A stretch of DNA of 64,000 bases. Origin: Clostridiales bacterium (GTDB lineage Bacteria; Bacillota; Clostridia; Caldicoprobacterales; UBA3941). The position numbers were made by a program, and so were the translations under genes. The notes beneath the pieces were generated by a model. The model did no database searches and had not been told where the DNA came from. It worked only from the letters and a program-made list of their open reading frames with translations. The number at the start of each line of letters is the position of its first letter. Positions within the stretch are counted from its first letter, which is position 1. Positions 3,876-55,610 of this stretch are shown piece after piece. Location: assembly GCA_012735575.1 (NCBI GenBank), contig JAAYGY010000056.1:29360-93359 (forward strand), read 5' to 3'.

Positions 3876-4763
3876 TTAGTTGGCCCTAAATAGACTCAAA
3901 AACTTCTTTATATATGAAGTCATTCCGGTATTATGTCTTGTGTCTCCTAAATCTTCATTCAGTAATCTCCCAGCCACAATCCTTACCTGTCGTGATGCTT
4001 GACATTTAGGATAGCCTAGGACATAGGGAACTTGTTCTTTTATAGACTTTGGGACATGACTATCTTCTAGAATATATCCTAGGTTTTTAATTTTTACTTT
4101 AAGAAATTTATCAGCAGCATGTGAAAACTTATCAAATATCCCTTGGGCTTCATTTATATTTTCTGCTTTGTTTATTATTAAACGCAGAACTACATCTCGT
4201 CTTGAAGCTGATATAATTTTTGTTAAAGCATAGGCATCAGTGATAGCTGTAGGTTCAGGAGTAACTATTAGTAAAACCTCATCTGCAGCTAGGACCATTT
4301 TAATGATATTTTCTGTTGCACCAGCTCCTGTGTCTATAAGAATAATATCAGCCATCATGTTTAATTCATCTATCTTTTGCAAAAAGAGATCCAGTTCAGT
4401 AGTGCTTAGATTAACCAACTCCTTTATACCAGATCCACCTGATATAAACCTAACTCCATAGGGTCCATCTACCATAACCTCCTCCAGGCTCATTTGCCCT
4501 GTAATAACTTCTCTAAGACCATGCCTAGAGCTTGTTCCCAACATTAGATCAACATTAGCAAGTCCAAAATCACCATCTATTATTACTATTCTGTACCCCA
4601 TCTTAGCTAAAGAAATTGCTAAGTTTATGGTAAAGCTGGTTTTCCCCACTCCTCCTTTTCCGCTGGTTATGGTAATAATTCTAGCATAAGAGGTATTATC
4701 ATCTTTCTTATTATTCTGTATTTTAGATACTATTTGTCTCAGTTGATCAGCTTGGTCTCTCAT
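3876..4763 (-). CDS. flhG: FlhG (YlxH) MinD-like flagellar number regulator ATPase
   Basis: 295 aa; deviant Walker A SGKGGVGKTS; N-terminal DQADQLRQ helix (DQAxxLR FlhF-activating motif); ATGA overlap with flhF. Confidence 0.9.
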   Translation of the reverse strand: MRDQADQLRQIVSKIQNNKKDDNTSYARIITITSGKGGVGKTSFTINLAISLAKMGYRIVIIDGDFGLANVDLMLGTSSRHGLREVITGQMSLEEVMVDGPYGVRFISGGSGIKELVNLSTTELDLFLQKIDELNMMADIILIDTGAGATENIIKMVLAADEVLLIVTPEPTAITDAYALTKIISASRRDVVLRLIINKAENINEAQGIFDKFSHAADKFLKVKIKNLGYILEDSHVPKSIKEQVPYVLGYPKCQASRQVRIVAGRLLNEDLGDTRHNTGMTSYIKKFLSLFRAN

Positions 4764-5905
4764 AATTTCTTATTCCCTATCAACAAATCTTTAATTTTAT
4801 TGATGTTGGCAATTTCTATGTCAGTGGGTACATTCTGACCGGTGGTTATGTAGGATATAGGCCTATTAGACATCAAGCGGCAATTTAATATGGTGCCATA
4901 TGTAGTTACCTCATCCAGCTTAGTAAAAAGCAGGCTGTAATTCGGTAGAAAACTATAAGTATTTATTACATTAACACATCCCTGGGGGCTAGTGTTGCTA
5001 CTTATAACTAAATGGATCTCATCTATATCTCCTAAGGCAATTAATTCATTAATTTCCTTCTCATGGTCCTTGTCCTTCATGCTTCTACCTGCTGTATCAA
5101 TTAGCACTACATCTTTGTCAGCATGTTCCTCTAAAGCTGTAGTAATTTGACTTGGCTCATAAATAATACTCATAGGGATCTCCAAAATCTCCGCATATAC
5201 CCTCAACTGATCTACTGCTGCTATTCTATATGTATCTGCAGTTATAAGTCCCACTTTTTTATTCTGCTCTATAGTAAAATTAGCTGCTAGCTTAGCCAAT
5301 GTAGTAGTTTTTCCAACACCAGTTGGACCTACAAATAGAATAACTTTTCGTTTTCCTGGTAATAATTCAATAGGCTTGGCCTTATTACCTAAACAATCCA
5401 TTATAACATGCTCAAAGCATCTGCAAAAGTCCATACCATTTTTACTATATAGCTCTTTAGCCTTTTTTAATATATCAACTGCATATTCCTGTCGTACTTC
5501 ATTATCTAATAGGACATCATAATATTCCTTGCCTTCGTTTATAGTTTCTTGGATAACAGTAAGTTCTTGCTCAGTCTTTTTTTGGTTATTATTAATTACT
5601 TGGCTCACCAGCTTTTGCACCATCTGGCCCATAGCATCAACTTTTTTTTCTAAGCTAGTGATAACATCTTTATTATACTGAACTTCCTTTGTTTGCGGAG
5701 TATTTTGATCAACTTTGCCTTTTGATACCACAATTTCATTGTCAATAGCAGCAGTAACTTCCATTAGTGGCTTGGAGAACCAGCCAATGATGCCCTTTTT
5801 TCTAATCCGTCTTGTATTTAATATAACCGCATCTGAACCAAGATCCATCTTTACCTGAGCCATTGCCTCTTGGGTTGTATTAGCTATGTATCTTTTTATA
5901 ATCAT
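4760..5905 (-). CDS. flhF: FlhF SRP-type flagellar GTPase
   Basis: 381 aa; G1 GPTGVGKTTT, G3 DTAGR, SRP54-type NG domain; position between flhA and flhG. Confidence 0.9.
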   Translation of the reverse strand: MIIKRYIANTTQEAMAQVKMDLGSDAVILNTRRIRKKGIIGWFSKPLMEVTAAIDNEIVVSKGKVDQNTPQTKEVQYNKDVITSLEKKVDAMGQMVQKLVSQVINNNQKKTEQELTVIQETINEGKEYYDVLLDNEVRQEYAVDILKKAKELYSKNGMDFCRCFEHVIMDCLGNKAKPIELLPGKRKVILFVGPTGVGKTTTLAKLAANFTIEQNKKVGLITADTYRIAAVDQLRVYAEILEIPMSIIYEPSQITTALEEHADKDVVLIDTAGRSMKDKDHEKEINELIALGDIDEIHLVISSNTSPQGCVNVINTYSFLPNYSLLFTKLDEVTTYGTILNCRLMSNRPISYITTGQNVPTDIEIANINKIKDLLIGNKKL

Positions 5906-33720: not shown

Positions 33721-34818
33721 TTAATTTGAATTTAAGCTATGCTCTATTATTCCTCCGCCCAAAACATAGTCATCCTCATAAAAAACAGCAGCTTGTCCAG
33801 GAGTAATTGCTCTTTGGGGTTCATCAAAAGATACCTTTATCTTATTGTTTTCTAAAGGATATAAGGTGGCTGGAACTTCAGAAGCGGTGTAACGTATCTT
33901 TACCTTTGCTCTTATAGGTTCTATCAGGGCGGGAATGGAAATAAAGTTTAGTCGCTCCACTATCATTTCTTTAGAAAAAACCTCATGATGGTCACCTAGG
34001 ACAACTAAATTTTTTTCAGCATCTATTGATACAACATACATGGGTTTTCCCAAAGCTATTCCTAAGCCCTTTCGCTGTCCTATGGTGTAATGGATAATAC
34101 CCTTATGTTTGCCCAATATATTTCCCTGAGTATCTACAAAATTACCAGGATTTATTTGTTGACCTAGCTGTTGCTCTATAAACTTGCCATAGTCATTATC
34201 GTCTACAAAGCATATTTCCTGGCTATCAGGCTTATTAGCGACTGTCAAACCTATCTTTTTTGCTAGATCTCTAACCTCTTCCTTAGTATACTTACCTAGT
34301 GGGAACAAAGTATGCTCTAGTTGGTACTGAGTCATGGAATAGAGTGCATAAGTCTGATCCTTCCCTGTAGCTACAGATTTTTTCTAAATATAACGTTGAC
34401 TTTGATCATTGTAAGTTATATCTGCATAGTGTCCGGTAGCAATATAAAAGGCATCCAGATCTAAAGCCTTTTTTAAAAATCTATCAAATTTAATATAGCG
34501 GTTGCATGCAATACAGGGATTAGGAGTTCTGCCTTTTACATATTCATCAATAAAATAATCAATTACCTTATCCTGAAAAACTTCTTTAAAGTTCATTACA
34601 TAAAAAGGGATACCTATATGATTGGCCACCCGCCTTGCATCATCTACAGCTGAAAGAGAGCAGCACCCGCCCTCTCTTTCTCTTACATGCCCTGGTAAAT
34701 CAGGCCATATCTGCATGGTAACCCCAATTACCTCATATCCCTGTTCCTTTAGAATATAGGCAGCAACGGAACTATCCACTCCTCCGCTCATGCCTATTAG
34801 AACTCTTTGCTTATTCAT
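33721..34818 (-). pseudogene. mnmA: tRNA 2-thiouridine(34) synthase MnmA interrupted by one in-frame TAG (34384-34386)
   Basis: ORFs 34384-34818 (SGGVDSS PP-loop, [10 protein letters not shown]) and 33721-34335 (DSQEICF, C-terminal barrel) are in the same frame; read-through gives ...QRYI*KKSVATGKDQTYALYSMTQYQLEHTLFPLG with the conserved KDQ(S/T)Y motif encoded between stop and next ATG. Confidence 0.85.
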
Positions 34819-44039: not shown

Positions 44040-44068
44040 AATATAATATCATACAGCTAAAAAGTCAA
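44040..44068 (-). promoter_or_regulatory. Sigma-A promoter candidate for hisS leader
   Basis: Minus strand TTGACT-17 nt-TATATT; -35 overlaps last codons of the upstream hemZ-like gene. Confidence 0.5.
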
Positions 44069-45544
44069 CTTTAATTTTCTCTCAATCATTTCATCTATGC
44101 GATTGATATATTCGTCTATATTCTTAACATTAGGTGCACGCTCTATTCGTCCCTCTTTAGGATAAACAAACTTAGATATAGCTGCGGCTCCAAAAGCCCA
44201 GATAGTTTGCTGATCCTCCATTATCTGCATATTGTAGATAGATTCTTTTGAAGGGATGGCAAATCCAATATTTTCCATATTTCCTAGCATATATTTCTGT
44301 CGATACAGGTAATAGGGCGTCATTCCCATTGCAATAGCACCTTTATAAAAAATATCCATCATATCCACTGCTAACTCTGGAGAAGCAAATTTATAGTCAT
44401 CTAAACTTTCTTTTAACCTGGATGCTCTCTTTACAGCCAAGGTATGAACGGTAAAGTTATCGGGCTTAAGTTTCTCTATGACCTCTATGGTATGACGTGC
44501 TTCTTTGGTTCCTTCTCCAGGCAAACCAACTATCACGTCCATATTGATAGAATCAAACGCAAACTCCCTTGCCATATGAAAACAATGAACAATCTCTTCC
44601 GCTCTGTGGTCCCTTCCTATAAGCTCTAAAGTCTTATTATTCATGGTTTGGGGATTTATACTAATTCGGGTAACATTAAAATCTTTTAAAAGCCTTAACT
44701 TTTCTTTATCCATTGTATCAGGTCTTCCACCTTCAACCGTATATTCCTTCCATGGCTGAGATCCCCAATGTTTATCTACTGCTGATAAAACTTTCTCCAA
44801 CTGAATTACATTCAAAGATGTTGGGGTACCTCCTCCAATGTAAAGGCTTTCTACTTCTATTCCTTTTTCCTTTGCTAACTGGGACATGACCTCCATTTCC
44901 TTCTCTAAAGCTAAGATATAATCATTAATTAAATGGTTACAACGGTCTATGGTAGCAGAAGGAAAGGAGCAAAAAAGGCATTTTGTAGAGCAGATTGGAA
45001 TATTTATATAAACAGAAATTTTGTTGGGGTGATTGTTTTCAAAATATGGACGTTGAACTTTTGCTATATCAATTAACAATCTGGCTTTTTCAGAACTTAC
45101 CCTATAATCATCATATAAAATATTAAGAATTACCTCTTCTTCGAATCCTTGGTCCATTAAACCATGAACGATCTTGGTTGGTCTAATACCTGTTAAGCAT
45201 CCCCACTCCAGGCACCGACCTGTTATCTCCTCTAATGCCTGATACAGTAAAAGTTTACTTCGATTTTTTGCTAATCTTCTAAGTTCAAGCTTTGACAGAT
45301 TAGGATCTAGTTCAAAACGCTCATGATACTTGCCTTTAGTTTCAGTACCATTAAAGAATTCAACAGTTGTTTCAATTATATTATCCCCAATCTTTTTGTG
45401 ACAACATTTAAATATTAAATCATCATAAGAAACCTTTTCAATATTATCAGCCGTTTTAACGGTAACTCCTGGAAAAAAGGCTCTTACAAGCTCTGCCAGT
45501 TCGTTTTTATATTCAGACACTGTAGATGAAACATATATAAGCAA
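44057..45544 (-). CDS. hemZ: HemZ-like oxygen-independent coproporphyrinogen dehydrogenase family radical SAM protein
   Basis: 495 aa; radical SAM CSTKCLFCSF (CxxxCxxC), HemN-like core preceded by a roughly 170-aa N-terminal domain as in HemZ; no C-terminal SPASM Cys cluster. Confidence 0.65.
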   Translation of the reverse strand: MLIYVSSTVSEYKNELAELVRAFFPGVTVKTADNIEKVSYDDLIFKCCHKKIGDNIIETTVEFFNGTETKGKYHERFELDPNLSKLELRRLAKNRSKLLLYQALEEITGRCLEWGCLTGIRPTKIVHGLMDQGFEEEVILNILYDDYRVSSEKARLLIDIAKVQRPYFENNHPNKISVYINIPICSTKCLFCSFPSATIDRCNHLINDYILALEKEMEVMSQLAKEKGIEVESLYIGGGTPTSLNVIQLEKVLSAVDKHWGSQPWKEYTVEGGRPDTMDKEKLRLLKDFNVTRISINPQTMNNKTLELIGRDHRAEEIVHCFHMAREFAFDSINMDVIVGLPGEGTKEARHTIEVIEKLKPDNFTVHTLAVKRASRLKESLDDYKFASPELAVDMMDIFYKGAIAMGMTPYYLYRQKYMLGNMENIGFAIPSKESIYNMQIMEDQQTIWAFGAAAISKFVYPKEGRIERAPNVKNIDEYINRIDEMIERKLKLTF

Positions 45545-52004: not shown

Positions 52005-52895
52005 CTATTTTGCTGTAGCCATTTTTCGAGATTTGGACTTTTCATCCCATAAAGCCCATAAGGATCCTGCTATAAATACAGACGAATAAGTTCCTGCAAT
52101 AAGGCCTACTATAATGGGCAGAGTGAAATCCTTTATAGATTCAACCCCCAAAACATACAAGGTAGCTACCGCGAATATGGTAGTGAGGGAGGTATTAAGT
52201 GTCCTGGTAATACTTTGTCTTATACTTTCATCAACAATCTCTGACATAGTCATTTTTCTTCCTAATTGTTTTATATTCTCCCTAACCCTATCAAAAACAA
52301 CTATAGTATCATTTATAGAATAACCAACTATGGTAAGGATAGCCGCAATAAAGGAGCTATTAATCTGTATTCCTGTAATAGCTGTTACTGCAATCATTAT
52401 AAAAACGTCATGAAGCAAAACAATAACAGCAGCTACACCAGAAACTAGCTCAAATCTAATCCAAATATATACCAGCATCAAAGCTCCAGCTATCAATACA
52501 GACATAACTGCATTCTGGATTAATGTCCTTCCCATAGTAGGACCAACATAATCTATACTTATGGCATCAGAAGCCAGGTTGTATTTTTCTTGAAGTCCTT
52601 TGACTATATTTTCATGAATTTCTTGTTGATTTTCCATATACCTCATTTTAATAATAGCATCCTGATTATCCTGACCAGCACTTAATATATCAGCATCCAC
52701 ACTCTGTTCATTGACAATGGCACGTATATCATCCACATTAAAGGGGGAACCAATACTGGCATATATTGTGCTACCGCCAATAAAATCTATACCTAGGTTA
52801 AGCCCTCGTACTGCTATAACGCCAACTCCAATGAGGATAATTATTAGGGGTATGGCAATCCATATTTTAAAATTCTTAACAATATTAAAATTCAT
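52005..52895 (-). CDS. secF: Protein translocase subunit SecF
   Basis: 296 aa, six TM helices, conserved GYSINDTIVVFDRVREN. Confidence 0.95.
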   Translation of the reverse strand: MNFNIVKNFKIWIAIPLIIILIGVGVIAVRGLNLGIDFIGGSTIYASIGSPFNVDDIRAIVNEQSVDADILSAGQDNQDAIIKMRYMENQQEIHENIVKGLQEKYNLASDAISIDYVGPTMGRTLIQNAVMSVLIAGALMLVYIWIRFELVSGVAAVIVLLHDVFIMIAVTAITGIQINSSFIAAILTIVGYSINDTIVVFDRVRENIKQLGRKMTMSEIVDESIRQSITRTLNTSLTTIFAVATLYVLGVESIKDFTLPIIVGLIAGTYSSVFIAGSLWALWDEKSKSRKMATAK

Positions 52896-52910: not shown

Positions 52911-54146
52911 TTATATACCATAAAGCTTTTTATTCTTGATGTTAAGCCCCATAACCAGCTTTAAAACGTAGCGGGTAAAGGAAATAGCTGTAAACATACT
53001 TGCTATGATTCCTATTATCAGAGTTTTAGCAAACCCTTGTATAGGTCCTGTCCCAAAATAAAGGAGGACGATGGCAGCAATTAAAGTAGTTATATTAGAG
53101 TCCAAGATAGCTCTAAAAGCCTTGGTAAATCCCATATCCAACGCTGCTCTTAAGGTTTTACCTGTTCGTGCTTCCTCTTTAATTCTTTCAAATATAATAA
53201 CATTGGCATCTACAGCCATGCCCACTGATAATATAATACCAGCAATACCTGGGAGAGTTAAAGTTATCTTGGCAATTACTATAACTGTCATTACTATTAT
53301 GATGTATGCAACTAAAGCCAGATCAGCTACCAAACCTGGTAGTCTGTAATACAGCAGCATAAACAGTAGCACTGCTATTACACCTATTGTACCAGCTAAA
53401 ATAGCCTGATTAAGAGCATTAACACCTAGTGTAGCACCTATTGTGCGGATCTCTGCTTGCTCCAGTTCTACAGGCAGGGCACCACTTTCAATCAAATTAG
53501 CCAGCTGTTTTGCTTCTTCTATATCCTTCATACCTTCAATGATACCTTTGCCTCCTGTTATAGGGCTATTTACTATAGGTTCGGATATAGGATTATTATC
53601 TAACAAAATCCTAATGACCTGTCCCTGGTATTTGGTAGTTGCCTCTGCAAATTTATCAGCACCTTCAGAATGAAGTTCAAAGTCAACTACTGCAGTCTGA
53701 CCAGGGCCATAGGCAGGTTTTGCAGATTTTACATCTTTACCAGTTATAATTATATCCCCTTCAGGTCCTTCAAATTCCAGGACAGCAGGCTTGGCCAGTA
53801 TATCTGCAAGCTCCCTAGGATTTTTGATCCCTGGGATTTCTACCTGGATTCTATTATCTCCCTGTCTAGCAACAGTTGCCTCGTTCTGACCTTCCTTATC
53901 CAATCTATTTCGGATAACCCTCATAGCACCAGTGATCTTACTATCCTTATCAGGGTCATTAGGCTCTACTTTGGCCTCATAAACAACATATAGACCTCCC
54001 TTAAGATCTAACCCCTGACGTACTTGTTGTCCTAATGGAGGAATCTCATAAGGTCCCCATAGGGATATTCCGTTTAATGCCACGTAGGAAAAAAATCCTA
54101 TAATAAAAATAATAAGTAGCAGCTTCCAGCCGCTTTTTCCCTTCAT
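52911..54146 (-). CDS. secD: Protein translocase subunit SecD
   Basis: LGLDLKGG motif (QGLDLKGGLYVVY), C-terminal six-TM domain with GMAVDANVIIFERIKEE; start ATG 54146 (GAGGGGGA RBS). Confidence 0.95.
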   Translation of the reverse strand: MKGKSGWKLLLIIFIIGFFSYVALNGISLWGPYEIPPLGQQVRQGLDLKGGLYVVYEAKVEPNDPDKDSKITGAMRVIRNRLDKEGQNEATVARQGDNRIQVEIPGIKNPRELADILAKPAVLEFEGPEGDIIITGKDVKSAKPAYGPGQTAVVDFELHSEGADKFAEATTKYQGQVIRILLDNNPISEPIVNSPITGGKGIIEGMKDIEEAKQLANLIESGALPVELEQAEIRTIGATLGVNALNQAILAGTIGVIAVLLFMLLYYRLPGLVADLALVAYIIIVMTVIVIAKITLTLPGIAGIILSVGMAVDANVIIFERIKEEARTGKTLRAALDMGFTKAFRAILDSNITTLIAAIVLLYFGTGPIQGFAKTLIIGIIASMFTAISFTRYVLKLVMGLNIKNKKLYGI

Positions 54147-54228
54147 ATTGTATCCCCCTCTTTTCCTTTCCAAGCCAAACTAGCTTCTAACAGAAATTTG
54201 TTTTACTACATAAAATGTCACTCTAACA

Positions 54229-54257
54229 ATTATATTACTTTGAAGGATGTCAGTCAA
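54229..54257 (-). promoter_or_regulatory. Consensus-like sigma-A promoter for secDF
   Basis: Minus strand TTGACT-17 nt-TATAAT, about 75 nt upstream of secD start. Confidence 0.7.
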
Positions 54258-54324
54258 TAGTCTTCAAATTTCCCAAAATCTGAATATAGTAGATCTGAAT
54301 AGTAGATAACTAAGCATACATAGA

Positions 54325-54351
54325 AATAGCAGTAGCAACGCCACTGCTATT
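54325..54351 (-). terminator. Rho-independent terminator after the SCIFF gene
   Basis: Minus strand AATAGCAGTGGC-GTT-GCTACTGCTATT (12-bp stem incl. one G-U) followed by TCTAT; 36 nt after stop codon. Confidence 0.7.
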
Positions 54352-54387
54352 AAAAATATAAATCAAAACCTTATTAATCCTAATCTA

Positions 54388-54528
54388 CTATTTTTGTTCG
54401 CAATTTTGATTCGCGACTGTACATGAGGTCTTGCAAGCAGACTGGCAAGAAGCCTGGCATTCGCCGCATCCTGATTTTAAAATAGTTTTCTTCAAATTAC
54501 CCTTATGTAACGTTTTAATATGACTCAT
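54388..54528 (-). CDS. scfA: Six-cysteine ranthipeptide precursor SCIFF
   Basis: 46 aa from ATG 54528 (GGAGGAATAATT RBS): MSHIKTLHKGNLKKTILKSGCGECQASCQSACKTSCTVANQNCEQK; six Cys and the GCGECQ-SCQSACKTSCTV core match the SCIFF family as I recall it. Confidence 0.9.
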   Translation of the reverse strand: MSHIKTLHKGNLKKTILKSGCGECQASCQSACKTSCTVANQNCEQK

Positions 54529-54572
54529 AATTATTCCTCCTTGGCACCAATTATAAATACGACTGTAACACA

Positions 54573-54601
54573 ATTATACAATAGCTATAGCCTTTCTGCA
54601 A
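54573..54601 (-). promoter_or_regulatory. Sigma-A promoter candidate for the SCIFF gene
   Basis: Minus strand TTGCAG-17 nt-TATAAT, about 45 nt upstream of the ATG. Confidence 0.65.
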
Positions 54602-54615
54602 GAAATTTGATTATA

Positions 54616-55023
54616 TTAAATATTGACTCCTATAATACCGCCTACTGCACCTGCAACTGCTCCTAAAAGAAGATCTGAAAAAATCAAGGATCCCATAATG
54701 TGAAAATCACCGAATAGGGAGCTAATTATAAAAGCCAAGAAAATATACAGTATTCCTGTGATGCAGCCTTTAAGCCATCCCATTTTTCGGCTTGCTCTGG
54801 CTGCTAGCATACCACCAAAAGCTATACTCAGGGTACGCACCACCTGAACAACTGGTGGAATTATTGATTCTTGCATATCTGCTAATTTTATGATAGCAGC
54901 AAATATGGTAAAGCAGATTAATGAAATAATAATGGCAATTAACGAACTCCTTAAAATGGCTATAATATCACCCGCGACTGATCCAGAACCTTGTCTGCTG
55001 GAAGTTCTTCGGATTTTTTTCAT
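54616..55023 (-). CDS. Small integral membrane protein (TIGR04086/YrzE-like, from memory)
   Basis: About 135 aa, basic N-terminus then four predicted TM helices, Gly-rich C-terminus GAVAGAVGGIIG; start ATG 55023 (AAGGGGA RBS). Confidence 0.55.
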   Translation of the reverse strand: MKKIRRTSSRQGSGSVAGDIIAILRSSLIAIIISLICFTIFAAIIKLADMQESIIPPVVQVVRTLSIAFGGMLAARASRKMGWLKGCITGILYIFLAFIISSLFGDFHIMGSLIFSDLLLGAVAGAVGGIIGVNI

Positions 55024-55219
55024 GGTTCCCATCCCCTTTATATTTTTTGGCTGCTATACCTAATTTTATACATATCACCAAATACAATAAGCTTAATATA
55101 AAATATGCAGCCAAAAGGGTATATATACCAATTTCAATGGGTATGGGGAATTGCTTCTTAAATACAAAAAGGGCTACCCAAGCCGGTTTTCTATCGACTT
55201 TAAGGGTCAGCCCAGTCTT

Positions 55220-55534
55220 CTAATCAGCTGTAATCTTGTCCACACTTCTAACAGCCCAACGTTCAAAAACCAACTTTACCTTATCAACGCCTACTTCTAC
55301 TGTAATAACATCTTCACGAATAGCAACAATCTTACCGCATATTCCACCAATGGTAGTAATATTATCTCCTACAGTCAGGGAAGCAAGCATCTCTCTATTT
55401 TCTTTCTCCCTTTTTCTCTGGGGACGAATAATTATAAAATAGAAAACTACTATCATCAATATAATAGGTAAAAAGCTGGCAAATAAACCTGCAGCTCCTG
55501 CCTCTGGTACACCTGTAGCAGCATTTAATAACAT
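55220..55534 (-). CDS. yajC: Preprotein translocase subunit YajC
   Basis: 104 aa from ATG 55534 (AAAGGAGGGAAAGAC RBS); single TM then IIRPQRKREKE and GDNITTIGGICGKIV motifs. Confidence 0.9.
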   Translation of the reverse strand: MLLNAATGVPEAGAAGLFASFLPIILMIVVFYFIIIRPQRKREKENREMLASLTVGDNITTIGGICGKIVAIREDVITVEVGVDKVKLVFERWAVRSVDKITAD

Positions 55535-55610
55535 GTCTTTCCCTCCTTTACCAAAAAATTGATTCTTGTCAATCTCCATATCTATAGATATGTAGTTTAA
55601 TTATTTATTT

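Follow-up and report, generated by a model that had tools for sequence, protein, structure and literature searches.

Few RiPP systems in Clostridia are as widespread as SCIFF. It has been treated as an obligate precursor/maturase pair, in which every ScfA should have an ScfB (PMC5300114). The 64-kb stretch of DNA analysed here, called the window, carries a SCIFF precursor gene (scfA) followed by secD, with no maturase gene at its side. Is this layout peculiar to one genome, how did it arise, and what might the peptide still do? A sequence-only reading of the locus had offered three answers: the maturase gene has been relocated, it has disappeared although selection still maintains the precursor, or the peptide is modified by some other enzyme.

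The gene is a 46-aa ORF running from 54528 to 54388 on the reverse strand and encodes MSHIKTLHKGNLKKTILKSGCGECQASCQSACKTSCTVANQNCEQK. The peptide scored 79.8 bits (E=1e-22) against TIGR03973 ('six-cysteine ranthipeptide SCIFF'), above the curated cut-off of 50, and PF13165 is recorded on the identical peptide in public gene calls. The six Cys and the GCGECQ core described in the sequence-only reading are in place, with Cys at 21, 24, 28, 32, 36 and 43, and both Thr34 and Thr37 are present. The length is that of the family (about 45 residues), as are the six invariant Cys and the CxxCxxxCxxxCxxxCxxxxxxC core, and the SecD relatives and tree described below place the organism in the class Clostridia. 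When 29 distinct ScfB-linked SCIFFs were compared, the window peptide had zero deviations at core positions that are at least 90% conserved. Like the known ScfA/ScfB systems (TIGR03973/TIGR03974; CteA/CteB of Clostridium thermocellum and Tte1186a/Tte1186 of Caldanaerobacter subterraneus), it has the invariant GCGECQxSCQSACKTSCTV core. Cys32, Thr34 and Thr37 are the residues reported to be cross-linked in SCIFF (PMC8326336), and these predicted donor and acceptor residues of the Cys-to-Thr (C-gamma) thioether are retained. As judged by profile score and residue conservation, the peptide is a true ScfA-family member. The intact ORF was left uncalled by gene callers in 9 of the 11 assemblies of the window species (L003-L011; e.g. 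L003:9574-9756). Annotation-based surveys will under-count SCIFF, orphan SCIFFs above all.

The gene order on the reverse strand is ruvC-ruvA-ruvB-queA-tgt-yajC-TIGR04086/DUF3792-scfA-secD-secF-recJ-apt-relA-dtd-MBL-hemZ-hisS. The features that concern us are the following.

55220..55579, reverse strand: yajC, start of the yajC...secDF neighbourhood (TIGR00739, 89.4 bits)
54616..55032, reverse strand: small TIGR04086/DUF3792 membrane protein gene upstream of scfA (TIGR04086, 87.2 bits, cutoff 30)
54573..54601, reverse strand: candidate scfA promoter, TTGCAG-17-TATAAT with TG directly before the -10 (read directly)
54536..54540, reverse strand: GGAGG ribosome-binding site, 7 nt before the scfA ATG (read directly; identical in sister species L102)
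54388..54528, reverse strand: scfA, SCIFF ranthipeptide precursor, TAG stop included (TIGR03973 and PF13165)
54325..54351, reverse strand: hairpin after scfA, 12-bp stem, GUU loop, one G-U pair (fold and conservation)
54258..54324, reverse strand: non-conserved spacer, the site of scfB (~1.35 kb plus flanks) in relatives; indel-rich and unalignable with L102
54280..54307, reverse strand: imperfect direct repeat, 13 + 15 nt, within the non-conserved spacer
54229..54257, reverse strand: secD promoter, TTGACT-17-TATAAT, right edge of the proposed deletion (11/12 matches)
52911..54146, reverse strand: secD, 411 aa (TIGR01129, 373 bits)
52005-52895, reverse strand: secF (TIGR00966, 296 bits)
44057..45544, reverse strand: hemZ-type radical-SAM gene (TIGR03994, 521 bits, cutoff 321)

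The upstream neighbour, rightly described earlier as a small membrane protein, is TIGR04086/DUF3792, with PF12670 recorded for it in all related loci. Its gene lies upstream of scfA in most linked loci, and also upstream of secD in Clostridia without the SCIFF system. We considered it as a SCIFF-specific partner and rejected this, as it is common upstream of secD where there is no SCIFF system at all (alone at the site in at least eight loci outside the order). DUF3792 is best regarded as part of the yajC-secDF neighbourhood. The loci where it adjoins secD without SCIFF or ScfB at the site are L012, L020, L023, L034, L037, L040, L041 and L053.

HemZ is the only radical-SAM protein within the 64-kb window and the only sizeable CxxxCxxC ORF. 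As the sequence-only reading held, it is without a SPASM cluster: no SPASM domain was found in it and PF04055 alone is recorded. As an alternative SCIFF maturase it was rejected, because it scores as HemZ, has no SPASM domain and was not matched by an ScfB HMM at E<=1e-3. This HMM was built locally from 11 ScfB proteins and run on every six-frame ORF of 25 aa or more in the window, and it detected no ScfB homologue among them over the whole 64 kb. Pfam scans of the remaining coding-strand ORFs of at least 90 aa gave no further radical-SAM or SPASM domain. The absence of an adjacent radical-SAM maturase, first noted beside scfA, thus extends across the window. No TIGR03974 maturase lies within about 500 bp of scfA; secD follows after 241 nt, and the same is true in 11 assemblies. 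The interval had been given as 214 nt. The most likely secD start is the ATG at 54146 (called as 411 aa in 11 assemblies), and the scfA-secD spacer measured from it is 241 nt.

Elsewhere in the window, where the Pfam scans showed housekeeping genes as well, a large flagellar/chemotaxis operon (cheC/W/A, flhA/B/F/G, fliP/Q/R, fliM/N, motA/B, flgE, fliI/H/G/F) occupies 1-26400 on the reverse strand, and iscR-iscS-iscU with thioredoxin lies at 34.8-40.1 kb. An mnmA-type tRNA 2-thiouridylase gene (33721-34818, reverse strand) is split by an in-frame stop at 34384-34386 (...QRYI*KKSVATGKDQ...). The two ORFs together span the Pfam domains, and a nonsense mutation (pseudogene) or a sequencing error could explain the stop.

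We then compared the same site in relatives. The exact window SecD occurs in three GenBank MAGs and in many assemblies of public sequencing runs (Logan), without any change of layout, and the exact window SCIFF in two more assemblies; overall, 11 independent assemblies of the species have the orphan layout. Among named organisms, those nearest in SecD are Caldicoprobacter guelmensis and C. oshimai (71% identity), Xylanivirga thermophila (66%) and Mahellales (58%), and further SecD relatives form a ladder at 95-76% identity. In a search of GTDB species-representative genomes the best SecD match to the window was 52% identical, among the matches listed. SecD places the window organism, which is uncultured, as a relative of the Caldicoprobacter/Xylanivirga group.

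Within this group the layouts form a series. Full clusters are carried by Xylanivirga (L094/L095, SecD 66% identical to that of the window; yajC-DUF3792-scfA-scfB-secD), by the MAG L100 (SecD 72%; DUF3792-scfA-scfB-secD, with scfB at 4083-5432 between the hairpin and the secD promoter) and by an anaerobic-digester organism (L121-126). L097 has DUF3792-scfA-scfB, with secDF moved away; recJ comes directly after these genes (L097:127-4959), the SCIFF module having stayed and secDF having gone. Orphan scfA, without scfB, is found in the sister species L102/L103 (SecD 91%), where promoter, RBS, hairpin and secD promoter are as in the window, in the C. guelmensis-type contigs L092/L093, which carry the exact SecD of isolate-named C. 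guelmensis, and in a 'C. oshimai' MAG (L105/L106), where scfA is preceded by an inserted toxin-antitoxin (TA) pair. This TA-like pair (L105:4895-5625) consists of an NTase_sub_bind (HEPN-type) protein and a Polbeta/NTP_transf_2 nucleotidyltransferase, lies between DUF3792 and the orphan scfA, and is absent from C. guelmensis.

In other members the site is reduced further. L098/L099 (SecD 81%) retain DUF3792 only; scfA is gone, and the hairpin and secD promoter remain. L096 (SecD 76%) passes from yajC straight into secD, with DUF3792, scfA and scfB all absent. L104 (SecD 83%) is rearranged next to an insertion-sequence (IS) transposase: an rve-family IS transposase gene (L104:3569-4507) stands directly upstream of secD, and unrelated genes replace yajC, DUF3792 and scfA. 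This rearrangement is associated with a mobile element and falls in the same hotspot. In L098 a short ORF (MEVLKIKQFRRIQ*) at 2404-2445 follows a GGAGG at the scfA start position and may be what is left, in degraded form, of the SCIFF leader (MxHIKTL...).

Outside the order, the SecD search of GTDB species-representative genomes gave, among the matches listed, at least 13 Clostridia loci with scfA-scfB directly upstream of secD and one unrelated Clostridia MAG, L026, with the orphan scfA layout. It had been suggested that relatives with the same unlinked layout would explain the split, and such relatives exist in L102, in two Caldicoprobacter species and in the unrelated L026. On this comparison the orphan layout is a lineage trait, not a one-off, and the biological puzzle remains. 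A core variant, GCKECANSCQSACKTSCTVANLxCEN, is ScfB-linked in L016/L021 (Caloramator proteoclasticus; Clostridiaceae MAG AA2) and orphan in L026. As far as the aligned peptides tell, SCIFF core variants track lineage rather than linkage state.

To place the losses on a phylogeny, a neighbour-joining tree was built from SecD+SecF+RecJ (640 ungapped columns, 100 bootstraps). Its topology, with WIN for the window, is ((((WIN,L102),(L104,L098)),L096),((L105,L092),L100)),L094, and the key nodes have 92-100% support. L100, with its full cluster, is sister to the orphan Caldicoprobacter at 100% bootstrap, and the window clade is separate, also at 100%. Since full-cluster L100 is sister to orphan Caldicoprobacter, at least two independent scfB deletions have taken place in the group. 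The orphan of L026, on sequence comparison, is a third loss, in a Clostridia lineage unrelated to this group. In each of the orphan clades, hairpin and secD promoter are joined by a collinear stretch with a shared junction, and therefore each deletion predates the species split. In L100 the stretch matching the deletion runs from ~3815 to ~5600 and includes scfB (4083-5432). As shown by these alignments, the ancestral cluster was yajC - DUF3792 - scfA - scfB - secDF, from which scfB was deleted in situ, between the post-scfA hairpin and the secD promoter, with ~1.5-1.8 kb lost. Neighbouring lineages afterwards lost scfA too, and then DUF3792, which shows that any residual function would be useful but dispensable.

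The expression signals fit an old arrangement. The promoter proposed for scfA in the sequence-only reading, TTGCAG-17-TATAAT, is present, and all 29 nt of the candidate are identical in the sister species L102, whereas flanking intergenic DNA has diverged. Its -10 (TATAAT, 54578-54573) is exact; its -35 (TTGCAG, 54601-54596) has 3/6 consensus matches, and with this weak -35 the candidate fell below the threshold of the consensus promoter scan, which did not list it. The GGAGG at 54540-54536 was confirmed as the RBS. The 12-bp stem that had been called a terminator is also real: the fold of 54300-54387 (reverse strand) has an MFE of -23 kcal/mol (z = -3.15), and the AGCAGUGGC...GCUACUGCU stem is common to L102, L092, L105, L100, L097 and L098. 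In the window the U-tract is weak, and the terminator scan made no call there. In L100 and L097 the hairpin is positioned between scfA and scfB, and a TATAAT ~35-45 nt before scfA also occurs in L100, L094 and L097, where scfB is linked, and in L026. A 'stand-alone transcription unit' is thus nothing peculiar to this locus. Promoter and hairpin come from an ancestral precursor/attenuator arrangement and are not new, because scfB-linked loci have them too. The hairpin, probably a terminator or attenuator of scfA already in the ancestral cluster, bounds the scfB deletion on the left.

Between the hairpin and the secD promoter no scfB remnant was found with the ScfB HMM on translations or in the L102 alignment, in a spacer too short and diverged to show one. 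The 'tandem repeat' described there was rejected as a functional element: TRF reports nothing at 54307-54280, where the repeat is below threshold, and it sits in an indel-rich stretch not conserved in L102. The imperfect repeat is probably meaningless noise. The secD promoter named in the sequence-only reading lies at 54257-54229, has 11/12 matches and is conserved in L102, L098, L092 and L105.

Is the orphan gene still selected? Nei-Gojobori counts were made on orphan-only pairs. Between the window and L102, the whole of scfA has 17 synonymous vs 3 non-synonymous differences (dN/dS about 0.02), and the core codons 19-44 have 12 vs 0 (binomial p about 1e-8). Between L092 and L105, scfA has 15 synonymous vs 0 non-synonymous differences (p about 3e-11). 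In the leader the counts are ~5 vs 3 (window/L102) and 4 vs 0 (L092/L105), with dN/dS about 0.1. At core positions with at least 90% conservation in the 29 distinct ScfB-linked SCIFFs, none of the orphans deviates, and the Ala26 variant is no sign of relaxed selection, because linked members of the order share it. As shown by these counts, orphan scfA is under strong purifying selection at the protein level, in the leader as well as in the Cys-rich core.

Of the answers offered at the outset, the evidence (in-situ deletion; 17 vs 3 and 15 vs 0 substitutions) favours loss of the maturase gene while the precursor stays under selection, or modification by another enzyme. Our best explanation as a whole, to which we give a probability of about 0.5, is that a deletion between the hairpin and the secD promoter removed scfB and left a genuine scfA. 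The deletion would be older than the divergence between the window species and its sister species, with independent equivalents in Caldicoprobacter and in unrelated Clostridia. The gene would have retained its TATAAT promoter, GGAGG and hairpin, and the 46-aa peptide would still be made and be useful in a genome that, we infer, has no cognate, vertically inherited ScfB. As to how it works, we suppose only tentatively, and by pure inference, that the peptide acts without the ScfB thioether through its six thiols, in metal, Fe-S or redox chemistry. It would then be an intracellular peptide, its 'leader' a part of the functional molecule; none of the SCIFF loci examined has a protease or exporter gene beside scfA-scfB, such as would suggest that the 'leader' is discarded. 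In favour of an unmodified peptide are the loss of scfB first in three independent lineages and the lack of any such adjoining gene. Against it, the leader (dN/dS about 0.1) stays conserved, as do Cys32, Thr34 and Thr37, which is expected if a leader-binding maturase still acts. That SCIFF has an activity not needing its radical-SAM maturase, with the unmodified peptide long kept by selection in at least two or three Clostridia lineages, the cultivable genus Caldicoprobacter among them, is in our estimate possible but doubtful. If true, the thioether would be accessory to SCIFF function and not its basis, and the function may be thiol-, metal- or redox-based.

A nearly equal alternative, to which we give slightly less weight, is that a non-cognate radical-SAM/SPASM or other enzyme, encoded at another place in the genome, uses the SCIFF leader for recognition and cross-links the peptide in trans, so that scfA would be an orphan by position only. 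The same conserved leader and cross-link residues of the orphans speak for it, and Clostridia commonly carry at least 30 radical-SAM enzymes per genome (PMC5300114). However, a substitute would be required in three independent lineages, and the window holds no candidate.

Alternatively, the cognate scfB may have moved and may still mature the peptide from a distant locus, as the strong purifying selection on scfA would allow. This relocation is disfavoured by the sequence searches, and we consider it improbable. An ScfB profile search of a 5.8-billion-cluster protein collection gave >8000 matches, of which the best 120 were listed, and any ScfB of <=58% identity, whether it had diverged or come in horizontally, would stay hidden among the rest. 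With the Xylanivirga ScfB as query, the matches listed form a shell at 66-71% identity and then a general background at 57-60%. All 30 ScfB clusters at least 60% identical to it were opened: none is Caldicoprobacter-named, while Caldicoprobacter SecD is present by name in the same collection, and none is >69% identical to the L100 ScfB. L100 and Xylanivirga (L094) are 68% identical in ScfB and 65% in SecD, and the SecD of L100 is 79% identical to that of Caldicoprobacter and 72% to that of the window. ScfB evolves about as slowly as SecD, and therefore a vertical ScfB is expected to be ~80% identical to that of L100 in Caldicoprobacter and ~73% in the window clade. Among the matches listed, no ScfB cluster has the identity expected of a vertical copy for either orphan clade. 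Amino-acid composition (FYMINK/GARP ratio) was also tried for choosing an ScfB candidate for a 36% GC genome, and did not discriminate.

The habits of scfB itself also argue against relocation. Every closest ScfB cluster checked for context, including the two most abundant, belongs to another organism and has scfA linked, and the data suggest that several other close ScfB clusters are linked with SecD. A metagenome search with the L100 ScfB returned 14 loci, the best at 69%, and all those with upstream sequence are linked to scfA. In total, scfA lies directly upstream in 30 of the 30 ScfB loci having upstream sequence, and Haft reported scfA adjacent at 234/234 ScfB loci (PMC5300114). Furthermore, sister lineages go on losing scfA and DUF3792. 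Probably the genome has lost its cognate ScfB of vertical descent.

It is very improbable that scfA is a decaying, non-functional relic, intact only as a small (141-nt) target. Its loss in L098, and that of the whole module in L096, would suit such a relic, but the two orphan-only pairs together have 32 synonymous vs 3 non-synonymous differences (pS 0.55-0.63), promoter, RBS and hairpin have been conserved while the DNA around them diverged, and the shared junctions make the loss old. A neutral relic is strongly disfavoured by these substitution counts. Finally, an assembly or binning artefact, in which misassembly dropped scfB from this metagenome-type genome, has a negligible chance, given an identical junction in the 11 independent assemblies, three GenBank MAGs included, and the same layout on contigs with the exact SecD of isolate-named C. 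guelmensis.

Like linked ScfA/ScfB clusters, the window locus has the slot (DUF3792 - scfA - ... - secD), the promoter and the post-precursor hairpin; unlike them, it has no maturase gene, and no vertically related copy was detected elsewhere among the matches listed. Precursors encoded away from their modifying enzyme are known from the prochlorosins, in which ProcA peptides are served by one ProcM. Like ProcA, the lone window precursor has its own promoter and could be served in trans. In the prochlorosin case, however, the ProcM-type enzyme is demonstrably in the genome, whereas here no cognate enzyme was found and the unlinking came about by in-situ deletion of the enzyme gene.

The SCIFF ranthipeptides of C. 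beijerinckii and C. ljungdahlii, which are of the same family as the window peptide and not from Caldicoprobacterales, have been linked to quorum sensing and sporulation (Chen et al. 2020, as described in PMC8102284), and these are the sole functional data known for SCIFF. Both precursor and radical-SAM genes were disrupted in that work, which, as described there, is silent on the activity of the unmodified peptide (PMC8102284). Our literature search found no report on orphan SCIFFs or Caldicoprobacter ranthipeptides. The ScfA family itself is known; what is new, on the evidence of the compared loci, is the recurrent, lineage-level orphaning of a RiPP precursor that is still under selection.

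Cluster-finding rules that demand both genes will miss orphan scfA loci. The lineages that lost scfB and kept scfA form a natural knock-out series for the question whether SCIFF needs its thioether. C. guelmensis and C. oshimai are named, described species, for which, given cultures, mass spectrometry of the peptide and transcriptomics would be practicable. The question of what SCIFF does (PMC8326336), and of whether its cross-link is needed, thereby gains a concrete handle in a described genus.
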